Positions 12,185-57,719 of a DNA stretch of 64,000 nt are shown here, in pieces. The notes beneath the pieces were generated by a model, which saw nothing but the letters and a program-made list of their open reading frames with translations, was not told the origin of the DNA and made no database searches. Source of the DNA: Promethearchaeota archaeon (GTDB taxonomy: Archaea; Asgardarchaeota; Lokiarchaeia; Sigyniarchaeales; SOKP01); contig JAHPZA010000009.1 of assembly GCA_019058445.1 (NCBI GenBank), positions 416,001 to 480,000 on the forward strand. The letters run 5' to 3'. Both the position numbers and the translations under genes were made by a program. Within the stretch, counting starts at the first letter, position 1. Each line of letters opens with the position of its first letter.

Positions 12185-13141
12185 TTGGAAAATCTCTTTC
12201 GTACTCTATTAAAAAATTACATGAATGATGTGGATGGGGTAATTGCTATTGCCATATGTGATAGAGATGGATTCATTATCGCTTCTGAGGATAGAGCGGA
12301 ATTTAACAATGAACCTGTAATTGGAGTATTATCGGCAGTATTAGATACTTACATAGATAGAATTAAGGACGAATTTGGAACAACCAGTAATTTTATGAAT
12401 ATCACAACTACTGGAGATAAAAAATTTGCTTATTGCTCTATGGGACCAAACTCAATTTTAACTAGTATTGCAACACAAACTACTACCGATATTGAATTAA
12501 GAGTTTATTCAGAACATATTGCAAGTAAAATAGAGTTAATTATATCTGGAAACGATAAAGTATCCCTTGAAATACCAGAAATTATTAGAACGCTTTCGAA
12601 AGTAAAAGGGGGAAAATTGCCAACAGGAGATTATTCTACTAAACTAATTCTCTGTGGAGATTATATGGTTGGAAAAACTTCTCTCATTAAAAGATTTGTT
12701 GAGGATAAGTTTCAAGAGAGTTATCTCGCTACTTTAGGAGTAGAAATCTCTAAAAAATCGTTAGAATTAGCAGAAACCACAGATATTAATTTTATAATCT
12801 GGGATATCGCAGGACAAAGAACTCAGATGGAAGCATATAAAAGACGTTTTTATAGCGGAGCAAACTCCGCATTTATAGTATTAGATAGAACAAGAGAAGG
12901 TAATTTAAAGAGTATTGAATATTGGTATAAAGATATCAAACAAGCAGTGAGAGGCAATATCCCTATTGTAATTGTCGGAAATAAGTCGGATTTAGAAGAT
13001 AAAATTGTTATTTCTGAGAAAGAGATTAAAGAGATAACTGACAAGTTTGGATTTCACTACATACTGACATCTGCAAAAACAGGTGATAATGTAAATGATG
13101 CCTTTCTTTATATTGCTTACCGTTTTTTAGAAATGGTGTGA
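12185..13141 (+). CDS. Roadblock/LC7 domain-Rab-like small GTPase fusion
   Basis: N-terminal roadblock pattern (DGVIAIAICDRDGFIIAS...GVLSAVL). GTPase motifs: G1 GDYMVGKT, G2 YLATLGVE, G3 WDIAGQ, G4 NKSD, G5 TSAKTG. TTG start. Confidence 0.9.
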   Translation: MENLFRTLLKNYMNDVDGVIAIAICDRDGFIIASEDRAEFNNEPVIGVLSAVLDTYIDRIKDEFGTTSNFMNITTTGDKKFAYCSMGPNSILTSIATQTTTDIELRVYSEHIASKIELIISGNDKVSLEIPEIIRTLSKVKGGKLPTGDYSTKLILCGDYMVGKTSLIKRFVEDKFQESYLATLGVEISKKSLELAETTDINFIIWDIAGQRTQMEAYKRRFYSGANSAFIVLDRTREGNLKSIEYWYKDIKQAVRGNIPIVIVGNKSDLEDKIVISEKEIKEITDKFGFHYILTSAKTGDNVNDAFLYIAYRFLEMV

Positions 13142-13260
13142 TTTTTGATTATGGTTTTAAATTAGAACACACTTCTTTATTAAATTTGTTTTATTAATTA
13201 AACTCAAATTGTTCAAAAAATTGGATTTAAAAATTAAAAAATTACAAGAGGTGGGAGTAA

Positions 13261-14193
13261 ATAGTCTTAACGGTTGCTTTCAATGATATACACGCTCAGT
13301 GAGACACTAGAGGCTATTTAATGGGATTTTCGATAAAAGAGATTACGTTCAAACAAAAATATCTTTTATACTTAACAGAACCAGAGCTGGCAGGTCCGTG
13401 GTTTAGTTTTAAATTAAAGGGAAAAAGGATAGGAACAATACCAGTTGTACTTAAAAATATTGAACCTACCCCGATATATCAGTTAGTAAATAGCAGAAAA
13501 GGTACAAAAATAGATCGTATTACATTAGATTTCGATATTAGGGAATATCTCAAAAAATTGATACGTGAAAATAAATTAAACCCCTTAAAATTTAAAGATG
13601 AAGAACATCTAATCCGATTATACATTGATGTTTTCTTGCGTAGAGGTCAAGCACCATACATGAATACATATTTTACCTTAAAAAATAATTCTGATTTTGA
13701 TTTAATTGACTTTTCTATGATTTTCATATTTGACTTTGATATCAACGGTCTAGAAGGTTTTGACAATGATTTATCTGGATATGATGAAGAGAATAACATA
13801 ATATATCAATATGATAAAACCGGTATTCATGCGGGTTTTTCTACAATTTCTAAACCAACTGGCTTTGAAACAAGCTTAACAAAAGATTTCCATTTAGGAA
13901 AGGGGAGATTAAATTTATCAAATACATTAAATGAAAGTGAAGGTGAAATTCTGTCAGCACTCCAAATTGAATTTAAAACTCTCGAACCAGAACATTCCTT
14001 TCAAACAGCCTTAACGATATCTGGGGGGTATAGTAGAGAAGAATTATTCGAAAATATCATTGAGGGACGGAGAGATGCTATGAAATATCTAAATCAAGTT
14101 TATAGATCTATCAGATCAGAACAGAGGAATAAACAAGAAGTAGCATTTATAAAATTGAACCTCCAAGAAGCTGAAGGGTGTAAAGATTGATAA
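13261..14193 (+). CDS. Candidate selenoprotein of unknown function (beta-rich). The core ORF is 13321..14190; the extended form reads through UGA at 13300 and/or 14188
   Basis: The core 289-aa ORF is solid. The in-frame upstream extension reads ATA GTC TTA ACG GTT GCT TTC AAT GAT ATA CAC GCT CAG TGA GAC ACT AGA GGC TAT TTA ATG, with GAGGTG 7 nt before the ATA. The 3' end is TGT AAA GAT TGA TAA (CKDU*), followed by a SECIS-like hairpin. Confidence refers to the Sec call. Confidence 0.65.
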
Positions 14194-14273
14194 ATCCATT
14201 TTAATGATTCAAATAAAAAAGCCGTTAATGGAAAGTTATTTGAGGAGAGCCTTGTGTTGGTTAGGATTTATTA
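14188..14273 (+). promoter_or_regulatory. Eukaryote-type SECIS element in the 3' UTR
   Basis: Helix I: TGATAAATCC 14188-14197 with GGATTTATTA 14264-14273. Core: ATGAT 14204-14208 opposite GGAG 14244-14247, giving tandem G.A/A.G pairs. Helix II: TCAAATAA 14209-14216 with TTATTTGA 14236-14243. Apical unpaired AAAA at 14217-14220 plus a mini-hairpin CCG-TTAA-TGG. Confidence 0.72.
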
Positions 14274-14336
14274 TAAAAACTATTATATGAGTATAGTAAT
14301 AAAAAATAAAATTAAGAAATTAAAAAAATATTTAAA

Positions 14337-55657: not shown

Positions 55658-55692
55658 TATTAAAATTCCTTATTTATTTTTTTATTGAGACT

Positions 55693-55770
55693 GTTATTAG
55701 ATCGAAATTGGAACTTAAATCAACATAAAAGTAAAAGTCTTTATATTTAAATATAGTATATTTCTCTCTT
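55693..55770 (-). promoter_or_regulatory. Conserved promoter/leader of array copy 5
   Basis: GTTATTAGAT at 55693-55702 and ATATTTAAATAT at 55743-55754. Confidence 0.65.
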
Positions 55771-55976
55771 CAAAAGAAGATTAATACTAATATCGAAACT
55801 AGCTTTTTATCAAATAAATATAAATATATGTATACGTATTGTTGAATTAATTGTAGCCAAATTATCACATAAAAACGTACCCAATTAAATTTAAAATATA
55901 AATATATGGAAACTAAAAAGGAATCATTTTCCTTAAATTTTTAAATTGATCTTTTAATCCAACTTATCAGGTGTAA

Positions 55977-57719
55977 ATTAATATCGAAAATAATGATAAT
56001 TATCAAGACTCAAAACCAAAAATAACATTAGTAGGATATGACAAAGTAGGAAAGAGCACGATTTTCAACTTGATTAAAAGCAATGAGATTCCCATAAAAC
56101 ATGCTCAGTCAATTAAAGGAGATATCGCTACTACAAAAATTGGTAAATTTAATTTCTATATATGGGATTACACTGGAGTTGAACATTTTAGCTTTATATG
56201 GGAAGAATTTATTAAAGAAAGTGATGCCGTCTTATTGATTACAGATTCTACTAAGGAAAATATTGAAAAAAGTAAATTTTTTTTAGAAATAATACGTTCA
56301 GAGGCTCCAATAGCAAATGTTGCTGTAATTGCCAATAAGCAAGATTTAATACAAGCAATGAATGCAAAGGAAATTGAAAAAATTTTAGGCTTCAAAACAT
56401 ATTCAATAGTAGCAGTAGATCCAATTAATCGAATAAAAATAATTCAAATAATTGCTGAACTCTTAAATATTAGTAGTGGTGTATCTCAACAAATAAGAAC
56501 TATGGAAGAAAGAGATAACTTGAGAAATTATTTAGAACAATTAATTGAAGATAATGACTTCCAATTAGCCAATACTGTAATTGACAGAATTATAGATTTG
56601 TGTGTAGAATTAGGTGACGACGCACTCAGTAATGATTTCAAGGAACTAGGAATCAAATTAGATCATATTTTAGATGAGAAAATAAATGATATTGGGCAAC
56701 TTATCCCAGAAGGCCTCACAGAAACTGAACCAGCTGAAGGACAGGCAACATCTGTTAAAGCAAGACTTCTTGAAACCCTTGTAACCAATTATATGAAAAG
56801 TATTGAGAGTGTTATAGAAGTAACTATTTGTGACCGAGATGGATTTACAATAATGTCTCAAAGTAAAAAGAAAATAGCTAGGGATGATGTTTTAGGGGCA
56901 ATGGCAACTGTTATTGATGACTATATTGATAGAATGAAAAATGAATTTGATGCCGAAGGTAATTTCTTTAATATTACTATGATTAGTGATAAAAAAATTG
57001 CATATTGTTCAATGGGTCCAAATTCAATATTAACTAGCATCGCAGAACTTTCTGCATCTGATGTTGAATTAAGAATTTTTTCAGAACATGTTGCGAGTAA
57101 AGTTGAATTAATTCTAGAGGGAAATGAAAATGTTGATGTTGAAATCCCCTTAGTTATAACGACAATGTCAAAATCTAAGGGAGGAGAACTTCCTACTGGT
57201 AAATTTTCGACTAAAATTATAATGACTGGTAATTATCAAGTTGGTAAAACCTCTTTAGTAAGTAGATTCGTTCGCAACCTTTTCCAGGAAAGCTATCAAT
57301 CCACAATAGGAGTAGATCTTTCAGAAAAAGTAGTAGAACTTAGTGATGATACAAAAATAAAGTTTATTATATGGGATATTGGCGGACAAATAACTCAAAT
57401 AGCACCATATAGAAAAAGGTTTTATGAAGGTGCAAATTCTGCTTTTATTGTATTAGATAGAACCCGGCCGGGAACTTTAAAGAGTGTGGAGATTTGGTAT
57501 AATGATATTAGTAAATATGTTAATGAAGATATCAATATTATAATAGTTGGAAATAAGACAGATCTCACAGACGAAATAAAAGTAAGCGAAGAAGATATAA
57601 GAAGTTTAGCTGAAAAATTTGGTTTCCATTACATTCTCACATCCGCCAAAACAGGTGAAAATGTTAACGATGCCTTTTTATATATAGCTTATAAATTTTT
57701 AGAATCAATTTCAAGTTAA
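55977..57719 (+). CDS. Tandem GTPase protein: degenerate Arf-like GTPase, helical linker, roadblock, Rab-like GTPase (start extended upstream of the listed 56070)
   Basis: The frame is open from 55977 (after TAA 55974-55976) and encodes KPKITLVGYDKVGKSTIFNLI (G1) upstream of the listed TTG, then WDYTG and NKQD. Roadblock: VTICDRDGFTI. C-terminal GTPase: GNYQVGKT, YQSTIGVD, WDIGGQ, NKTD, TSAKTG. The C-terminal ~320 aa is paralogous to 12185..13141. Confidence 0.88.
   Translation: MNIENNDNYQDSKPKITLVGYDKVGKSTIFNLIKSNEIPIKHAQSIKGDIATTKIGKFNFYIWDYTGVEHFSFIWEEFIKESDAVLLITDSTKENIEKSKFFLEIIRSEAPIANVAVIANKQDLIQAMNAKEIEKILGFKTYSIVAVDPINRIKIIQIIAELLNISSGVSQQIRTMEERDNLRNYLEQLIEDNDFQLANTVIDRIIDLCVELGDDALSNDFKELGIKLDHILDEKINDIGQLIPEGLTETEPAEGQATSVKARLLETLVTNYMKSIESVIEVTICDRDGFTIMSQSKKKIARDDVLGAMATVIDDYIDRMKNEFDAEGNFFNITMISDKKIAYCSMGPNSILTSIAELSASDVELRIFSEHVASKVELILEGNENVDVEIPLVITTMSKSKGGELPTGKFSTKIIMTGNYQVGKTSLVSRFVRNLFQESYQSTIGVDLSEKVVELSDDTKIKFIIWDIGGQITQIAPYRKRFYEGANSAFIVLDRTRPGTLKSVEIWYNDISKYVNEDINIIIVGNKTDLTDEIKVSEEDIRSLAEKFGFHYILTSAKTGENVNDAFLYIAYKFLESISS

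Follow-up and report, generated by a model that had tools for sequence, protein, structure and literature searches.

We analyzed a 64,000-nucleotide (nt) window of the genome of a Promethearchaeota archaeon (GenBank assembly GCA_019058445.1, 4.6 Mb in 10 contigs; contig JAHPZA010000009.1, C9:416001-480000), whose main feature is a tandem array of giant surface-receptor genes. The array lies head to tail on the minus strand (14337-55657) and consists of five open reading frames (ORFs), each of 2648–2669 amino acids (aa); the G+C content of the window is 25–33%, and loci related to it by similarity come from Promethearchaeota/Promethearchaeia (Asgard, Lokiarchaeia type). A preliminary description, made from the sequence alone, had reported five ~8-kb tandem receptor genes flanked on each side by a roadblock-Rab GTPase gene, the left one two genes away. 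All five receptor ORFs are present as described. Both GTPase genes, P0007 on the left and P0008 on the right, are there as well, with roadblock-Rab parts that are 60% identical; the right one, however, also has an N-terminal Arf-like domain, and a single gene, P0006, lies between P0007 and receptor copy 1. We found that the cytoplasmic tail of the receptors is a fused operon partner, which is normally a separate, coupled gene.

Each receptor protein carries three Laminin_G_3 stretches (Pfam, E 1e-53 to 1e-54; 180–185 bits at a cut-off of 27.6) and three DUF2341 stretches (58–77 bits at a cut-off of 23.4), all above the gathering score, together with a stalk of ~1080 aa that gives weak Pfam matches to Ig-like and CarboxypepD_reg families. 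An N-terminal hydrophobic anchor or signal occupies residues 8–29, and a single membrane helix lies near residue 2190. N-x-S/T sequons number 44–55 per ectodomain (3.1–3.7 per 100 aa in the stalk) versus 0–3 per tail, and a basic stretch directly follows the membrane helix, indicating a type I topology with the heads outside and the tail inside, in agreement with the earlier description of single-pass receptors with a cytoplasmic tail. To compare the heads, we cut the 15 DUF2341-LamG units at a conserved start motif. The DUF2341 parts are 50–87% identical across all comparisons and the LamG parts only 25–44%, except for unit 3 of copies 1, 3, 4, and 5 (62–87%); in unit 1 of copies 3 and 5, for example, identity is 82% in DUF2341 and 32% in LamG. 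Apart from this sharp, LamG-limited contrast, the whole receptor genes are 47–77% identical and their tails 57–90%, so the proposal of variable LamG heads on a conserved ~450-aa tail holds. Judging from these identities, the variability could stem from either cassette exchange or diversifying selection.

The starts of the receptor genes are also conserved: ~160 nt next to the start, including an A/T-rich TATA-like block, are shared upstream of all five copies, and ~250 nt of the divergent region between copy 5 and P0008 are common to the region upstream of copy 4 (alignment A5). We consulted Logan contigs from two samples of one study, the likely source sample being one of them. Over 55562-55784, which spans the receptor start and promoter, the contigs of the source sample are fragmented, with a depth of 2–6 times that of the flanks, as would be expected from five nearly identical upstream regions; one variant contig over this interval has 8 differences and 2 gaps.

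An AlphaFold2 (AF2) model of the copy 1 tail, built from a 70-sequence alignment, reached a predicted local distance difference test score (pLDDT) of 94.1 and a predicted template modeling score (pTM) of 0.91. It contains helices at residues 10–60 (pLDDT 93–98), a b-b-a-b-b-b-a domain at 90–183, and two three-helix/beta-hairpin domains at 212–292 and 326–410. The elements assigned by DSSP (E90-97, E101-108, H116-129, E133-139, E142-148, E155-162, H167-183) follow the longin order b-b-a-b-b-b-a(-a) without an N-terminal helix. In an exhaustive VIA-align comparison, the best structural matches of this domain were a Lokiarchaeal Roadblock-Longin protein (8yqg_B, Z 11.6) and NPRL2 (8fw5_B, Z 11.4), followed, down to Z 10, by VAMP7, Npr2/3, DENND1A, FNIP2, and Lst4, which bears out the earlier assignment of the tail as a longin module. 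The two other domains are predicted winged helices (WH) that superpose on ArsR/MarR-type winged helices at Z 8.6–9.3. With the whole chain, the top Foldseek matches were NPRL2/NPRL3 of GATOR1 (E 7.5e-5 to 3e-4, at a template modeling (TM) score of only 0.18–0.23), and then Mon1-Ccz1 and SEA-complex chains. At the sequence level, the tail matched no Pfam family even at E 10, bar chance-level winged-helix fragments, and the NPR2/NPR3 models were among those without a match; 10 stand-alone homologues of the tail likewise had no Pfam match, and the ESM Atlas look-alikes of one of these stand-alone proteins were Asgard 'hypothetical protein' clusters only. The longin is followed by two winged helices rather than a DENN domain, and the DENND1 matches cover the longin only. 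The modeled architecture of the tail is thus NPRL2-like rather than DENN-like, a likeness of architecture that falls short of demonstrated homology to NPRL2/NPRL3.

The loop between the first two longin strands is well conserved in the tail family (70 sequences): W96 in 91%, D97 in 79% (Asn in window copies 1 and 2), R99 in 56%, and G101 in 94%. Its Trp-Asp pair and W-D-x-x-x-G spacing equal those of C9orf72 W33-D34...G38. The residue after G101 is Pro in 7 of the 70 sequences and Thr in the window copies, which therefore lack a GP motif. Median net charges across the family are +6 for the juxtamembrane helices, −9 for the longin, and 0 and −2 for the two winged helices (isoelectric points 6.8 and 5.2). 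These charges bear on one alternative, in which the receptors would be membrane-tethered transcription regulators whose winged helices contact DNA, either directly or once the tail has been released, and thereby report an outside ligand. It draws on the superposition on ArsR/MarR-type repressors; across the family, however, both winged helices are neutral to acidic, which favors protein-protein rather than DNA contacts, the whole-chain matches are to NPRL2/NPRL3 and Mon1-Ccz1, whose domains of this kind make protein contacts, and we saw neither a cleavage site nor a protease partner. We regard such a regulator as extremely improbable.

To define the relation of the tail to the ectodomain, we examined, codon by codon, where the two meet in 73 related cassettes of ~50 genomes. 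A separate gene of ~370 aa (here called the adaptor) encodes the longin-WH-WH part in 64 of these. Its ATG stands directly behind an in-frame TAA, shares one base with the stop, or comes no more than 5 nt later, and the final codons of the upstream surface-protein gene contain a GGAGG; exceptions among these split cassettes are three with a gap of 7–29 nt and seven without a large upstream ORF, mostly at a contig edge. Even genus-level relatives are split, with an in-frame TAA-ATG at the junction. The upstream gene of split cassettes encodes 1360–2600 aa and ends in a conserved membrane-proximal ectodomain, a membrane helix, and juxtamembrane helices, the last of which correspond to tail residues 1–66 with 27–53% identity; its distal part varies, often lacking DUF2341 and LamG. 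True fusions account for nine of the 73 cassettes and, in addition, the five window copies, and none of these has a stop or a GGAGG at the junction; the junction residues in the window are D-L-I/V-P in copies 1 and 2 and D-L-M-P in copies 3–5. A HMMER scan of 1.84 billion representatives returned 422 relatives of the tail, most of them stand-alone proteins of ~360–380 aa that start at tail residue 87. The adaptor family turned up in 40 of 41 relatives and, across the phylum, in 115 of 151 sampled genomes (20 of 29 families); the window's own genome holds one split cassette 53 kb beyond the window. We are highly confident in this architecture and in reading the window tails as one half of a fused gene pair. 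A few members of the adaptor family, such as P0048 and P0059 (~1020–1046 aa), carry C-terminal SIR2_2 and TPR domains, recalling defence or NAD-consuming effectors.

Table 1. Coordinates of the receptor array and of the genes beside it, in positions of the window
Feature	Position	Strand	Basis or remark
Receptor copy 1 (P0001, 2663 aa)	14337-22328	-	ORF, Pfam, membrane-helix and sequon analysis
Copy 1, signal/anchor	22242-22307	-	
Copy 1, three DUF2341-LamG units	18984-22127	-	
Copy 1, glycosylated Ig-like stalk	15762-18983	-	
Copy 1, membrane helix	15699-15761	-	
Copy 1, cytoplasmic tail	14340-15698	-	Basic juxtamembrane helices, longin, two winged helices, C-terminal helix
Copy 1 tail, longin	15078-15440	-	
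Copy 1 tail, winged helix 1	14823-15065	-	
Copy 1 tail, winged helix 2	14469-14723	-	
Receptor copy 2 (P0002, 2648 aa)	22688-30634	-	Most divergent copy; all three LamG cores unique
Receptor copy 3 (P0003, 2669 aa)	31086-39095	-	
Receptor copy 4 (P0004, 2650 aa)	39373-47325	-	
Receptor copy 5 (P0005, 2655 aa)	47690-55657	-	Head-to-head with the triple-domain GTPase gene
P0007	12185-13141	+	Roadblock plus Rab-like GTPase
P0007, roadblock	12185-12628	+	
P0007, Rab-like GTPase	12629-13138	+	
P0006 (289 aa)	13321-14190	+	No family assigned; single-copy conserved partner of P0007
Divergent intergenic region (319 bp)	55658-55976	.	Between receptor copy 5 and P0008
P0008	55977-57719	+	Arf-like, helical linker, roadblock, Rab-like
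P0008, Arf-like	55977-56501	+	
P0008, roadblock	56760-57200	+	
P0008, Rab-like	57201-57716	+	

Several other genes of the window lie outside or across this arrangement (Table 1). A SNF2-family helicase gene (with DUF3670) and a gene for a SWIM zinc-finger protein occupy 7669-11801, between w5592 and P0007; two related genomes, G041 and G042, lack them at the syntenic position, pointing to a lineage-specific insertion. Beyond P0008, 59892-61477 holds two tandem minus-strand paralogues of 250 aa without a Pfam family, of which the sister species G003 has one copy. Within receptor copy 3, a plus-strand ORF of 162 aa (32017-32505) runs antisense; in DNA this rich in A/T, it most likely arose by chance.

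The left GTPase, P0007, matches Pfam Ras (E 2e-38), with only a weak MAPKK1_Int match over its roadblock part, and its closest PDB sequences are Rab1B and Rab1A (Rab1B, E 2e-30). In its AF2 model (pLDDT 82), the C-terminal domain matches Rab3C (Z 26.6) and the N-terminal domain matches MglB (3t1r_A, Z 16.2, root-mean-square deviation 2.6 over 120 residues); residues 1–125 have the roadblock/LC7 topology a-b-b-a-b-b-b-a (H2-15, E19-26, E31-36, H45-64, E69-76, E79-86, E90-97, H102-120). The C-terminal domains of both P0007 and P0008 have the P-loop, DxxGQ, and NKxD motifs of Rab proteins; both proteins end without the Cys of a prenylation motif, and we therefore call them Rab-like only. P0007 stands next to P0006 in 27 of 32 loci across the order. 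P0006 itself was found once per genome in 34 of 41 relatives, always adjoining a roadblock-Rab gene where context was available, with frames of 289–298 aa in most genomes; it has no Pfam match, and in the Atlas it resembles Asgard hypothetical proteins or beta-sandwich families. A roadblock/Rab-like/DENN operon has been described in Asgard archaea (Liu et al., bioRxiv 10.1101/2020.10.19.343400); the P0007-P0006 pair may correspond to it, although P0006 could not be matched to its DENN protein.

The preliminary description took both flanking roadblock-Rab GTPases to be dedicated downstream switches of the array. In favor of this, only four of the ~62 GTPase-domain loci of the genome contain a roadblock domain of the P0007/P0008 kind, and two of these four flank the array; P0007-P0006 also lies at the receptor 3′ end in the fused-receptor clade G041, G042, and G043, and in G032 the pair is ~6–8 kb from a 2371-aa surface-protein gene with adaptor. 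Against it, P0007-P0006 is a near-universal single-copy pair whether a receptor is near or not, with a tail-family ORF within ~8 kb of P0007 in just 1 of 32 loci, that of G003, where the tail is a degraded remnant of 115 aa. In the sister species G002 and G003 (~90% protein identity), the SNF2, SWIM, P0007, and P0006 genes are followed directly by the HAD-like gene, the PDE gene, and the following window genes, so that the pair is intact but the ~42-kb block of five receptors and P0008 that separates P0006 from the HAD-like gene in the window is missing. The G003 remnant, riddled with stops and next to P0006, indicates that an ancestral receptor was deleted. In G045, ~130 kb separate the pair from the receptor array; in G041, G042, and G043, unrelated flanking genes are conserved along with it. 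Synteny thus gives no conserved linkage of P0007 with the receptors, one of the outcomes that the preliminary description had named beforehand as refuting. We read the adjacency of P0007 to the array as descent, not function, and P0007-P0006 as a separate housekeeping-type pair that is probably outside the receptor system; a model with both GTPases as dedicated switches is improbable, and P0007 as a partner of the receptors at least as much so.

The right GTPase, P0008, matches Pfam Arf (E 5.6e-30, profile positions 12–145) as well as Ras (E 8e-47), and its residues 1–175 form an Arf-type G domain, lacking the N-terminal amphipathic helix/Gly2 and the switch-II Gln of the Arf family. Full-length orthologues (49–51% identity, 670–696 aa) occur in G041, G042, G043, and G045. 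In the three of these with usable context (G041, G042, and G045), the orthologue stands head-to-head with a fused DUF2341-LamG receptor at a distance of 247–254 bp; in G045, it is beside a tandem receptor pair in a neighborhood that shares no other gene with the window. We did not find the triple-domain gene among 40 close relatives, and in G002 and G003 P0008 was lost together with the array while P0007 and P0006 stayed. Of the proposal that the flanking GTPases are linked to the receptors, the part concerning P0008 is therefore supported by the arrangement in three other species and by the joint loss, and the part concerning P0007 is not.

We then surveyed the Arf-like domain family of P0008 more widely. 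Each genome has 2–5 paralogues, all with a conserved N-terminal domain of ~120 aa. A tail-family ORF lies no more than 7 kb away at 16 of 59 Arf-like loci, versus ~2 expected from the window's own genome, in which 3.8% of bases are that near a tail-family ORF. The neighbors adopt at least five kinds of arrangement, including divergent, co-directional upstream or downstream, and convergent. We take this enrichment as evidence of moderate strength; it lends genomic support to the proposed link between tail and small GTPases for the Arf-like kind, although GTPases in general show none. Two other families of the order encode a stand-alone, longin-only homologue of the tail (~130 aa) at a distance of 1.4–5 kb from an Arf-like GTPase of 570–780 aa, and eight loci (L059, L064, L066, L072, L073, L076, L079, and L088) represent this second, apparently orthologous longin/Arf-like neighborhood.

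A number of observations weigh against a role of GTPases at this locus, among them the state of P0008 itself. The window copy is without the ~120-aa N-terminal domain that all of its orthologues and Arf-like relatives have. No ATG, GTG, or TTG precedes its P-loop: only 13 codons of open frame lie ahead of it, 55977 is merely the first codon after a stop, and the first in-frame TTG (56070) lies past the P-loop. We detected no trace of the missing domain in the 319-bp intergenic region, which is homologous instead to the regions upstream of other receptor copies. In the Arf-like domain, Val replaces the switch-II Gln, and the residue at the Ras-G13 position is Lys; the orthologues, too, vary at the switch-II position. 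We considered whether assembly had introduced a 1-nt error within the A5 run at 56018-56022, whose correction would put an ATG at 55993 in frame; this was rejected, as the Logan contigs of the two samples have no indel there. From these features, the Arf-like part of the window P0008 may be inactive or decaying, with its roadblock-Rab part intact, and we hold P0008 to be a possible, though unlikely, partner of the receptors.

Further points concern the wider association. Loci of related genomes are not independent, so the significance of the Arf-like enrichment is overstated, and the synteny of the window with G041 and G042 extends further (w3612, w5592, and PDE), making part of the receptor-P0008 adjacency simple descent. 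Most split cassettes have no GTPase neighbor at all, and a general enrichment of GTPases within ~10 kb of the cassettes was rejected, with 8 seen versus ~9 expected. The GP-motif proline is found in only 10% of the tail family, and no tail-GTPase interaction prediction was supported: for the copy 5 tail (alignment A3) with the P0008 Arf-like domain (A2), complex prediction gave a median score of 0.30 at a mark of 0.32, in a run without controls, a result that speaks neither for nor against binding. Comparison of the ~120-aa N-terminal domain of the Arf-like family with the tail longin by hhalign (probability 1.4%) gave no detectable homology.

Much of this would suit receptors that are adhesins or envelope proteins, with a longin-WH tail that only anchors, sorts, or assembles them and takes no part in GTPase signaling. 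The tail would then be a cargo-adaptor-like handle, a cytoskeleton tether, or a link to a secretion or glycosylation machine, and the GTPase genes bystanders in a GTPase-rich genome. The lack of GTPase neighbors at most cassettes, the background density of GTPases beside them, and the degraded look of the window P0008 agree with such a role, as does the dispensability of the array, deleted in the sister species. Longin domains also serve without GTPases, for example in SNAREs and in AP sigma/mu subunits (PMC10933270), which are among the fold matches of the tail. What it leaves unexplained is the ~seven-fold enrichment of Arf-like GTPases beside tail-family genes in several arrangements, the occurrence of P0008-type genes only beside fused receptors, with which they are lost, and the conserved W-D-x-R-x-G loop at the place where longins of GTPase-activating proteins (GAPs) contact the GTPase. 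We judge a purely structural tail to be a minority explanation, though one to be taken seriously.

On the best-supported account, longin-fused Arf-like GTPases are the most likely clients of a membrane-anchored longin platform. The locus as a whole would be a lineage-specific tandem expansion, to five paralogues, of a phylum-wide Asgard two-part module with such clients, a reading whose chances we see as evenly balanced; that the tail is coupled to any GTPase is, taken separately, a little less probable. The module combines a giant glycosylated surface protein with a cytoplasmic longin/two-winged-helix adaptor, joined in the window by loss of the stop/start junction. The LamG heads would give each copy its own outside ligand, a glycan or a partner-cell surface. 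The basic juxtamembrane helices may hold the acidic longin-WH body at the membrane, covalently in the window and non-covalently in relatives, and the longin with its W-D-x-R-x-G loop could act as a docking or regulatory platform for a longin-fused Arf-like GTPase, the local candidate being the head-to-head Arf-like/roadblock/Rab-like gene P0008. More tentatively still, ligand binding by the interchangeable LamG heads might alter the action of the membrane-attached, NPRL2/C9orf72-like longin platform on a longin-fused Arf-like (and roadblock-Rab-like) GTPase, a prokaryotic transmembrane pathway of eukaryotic design whose outcome could be local remodeling of membrane or cytoskeleton, for example at contacts with syntrophic partners.

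The joining of a surface protein to an NPRL2-like longin module, translationally coupled in relatives, predicts a direct complex of the two, and the recurrence of the longin-fused Arf-like GTPase family beside the longin-WH-WH module provides a lead to its partners. With five natural heads on a common scaffold, the array also lends itself to ligand screening. If the coupling is true, longin platforms for GTPases were placed on membranes before eukaryotes existed, starting at the cell surface, and the gene pair, with its fusion in the window, is a living relative of the longin-GAP/Rag-Arf modules used on eukaryotic lysosomes. If it is false, the family still represents a large, unannotated, phylum-wide class of Asgard envelope proteins.

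We know of no receptor input to any Asgard small GTPase or longin/roadblock protein. Asgard NPRL2-like longins, roadblock/longin-GTPase fusions, and GP-motif longins have been published; the split-versus-fused relation of surface protein and longin-WH-WH adaptor, and its phylum-wide spread, are new, and our full-text literature search found no paper on an Asgard longin joined to a transmembrane surface protein. In eukaryotes, NPRL2/NPRL3 (yeast Npr2/Npr3; GATOR1/SEACIT) act on Rag GTPases at the membrane. Like the tail, they have an N-terminal longin followed by winged-helix-type C-terminal domains; unlike it, they show no Pfam-level match to the tail and a global TM score of only ~0.2, and the tie of the tail, by fusion or translational coupling, to a giant extracellular protein has no eukaryotic counterpart. 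NPRL2-like longin proteins have been reported in Asgard archaea, where their published fusions are to two-component signaling domains, not to surface proteins (Liu et al., bioRxiv 10.1101/2020.10.19.343400).

The GP-motif longin GAPs (C9orf72-SMCR8 and FLCN-FNIP2) share with the tail a Trp-Asp pair and a Gly before longin strand 2 at equal spacing, and in C9orf72 this region, W33-D34...G38-P39, is one to which the GAP activity of the eukaryotic longin GAPs has been linked (PMC12290439). These GAPs act on Arf and Rag GTPases (PMC12290439), and the genomic association of the tail is with Arf-like GTPases. The GAPs differ in having the Pro that is present in 10% of the tail family, and in the DENN module that follows their longin in place of two winged helices. 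Ragulator (LAMTOR1-5) and SR-alpha/SR-beta, in which the longin of SR-alpha binds the Arf-like SR-beta, resemble the proposed arrangement in that a membrane-held roadblock or longin platform docks a small GTPase. They are anchored through a lipidated LAMTOR1 or through a membrane helix that belongs to the GTPase, whereas the platform described here sits on a single-pass receptor whose ectodomain measures 2150 aa.

P0007 and the C-terminal two thirds of P0008 combine a roadblock with a Ras-superfamily GTPase, as do MglA/MglB and the Asgard roadblock-GTPase fusions (PMC10933270), with the difference that P0007 and P0008 place the roadblock before the GTPase; the P0008 type has a further GTPase, of the Arf-like kind, and its orthologues an N-terminal domain. 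Longin-GTPase-roadblock architectures are also known for Lokiarchaeia (PMC10933270). Asgard genomes encode dozens of small GTPases and longin/roadblock proteins whose partners are not readable from gene order, and the GTPase genes of MK-D1 do not generally share operons with those for roadblock or longin proteins (PMC10933270), a rule to which the recurrent Arf-like/adaptor neighborhood is an exception. Finally, the head modules of the receptors are the standard Pfam families of DUF2341 and LamG surface proteins of archaea and bacteria. The receptors are distinguished from these by their three units, with LamG cores that are swapped or hypervariable within a conserved frame, and by a stalk, membrane helix, and tail that are common to relatives with quite different heads.

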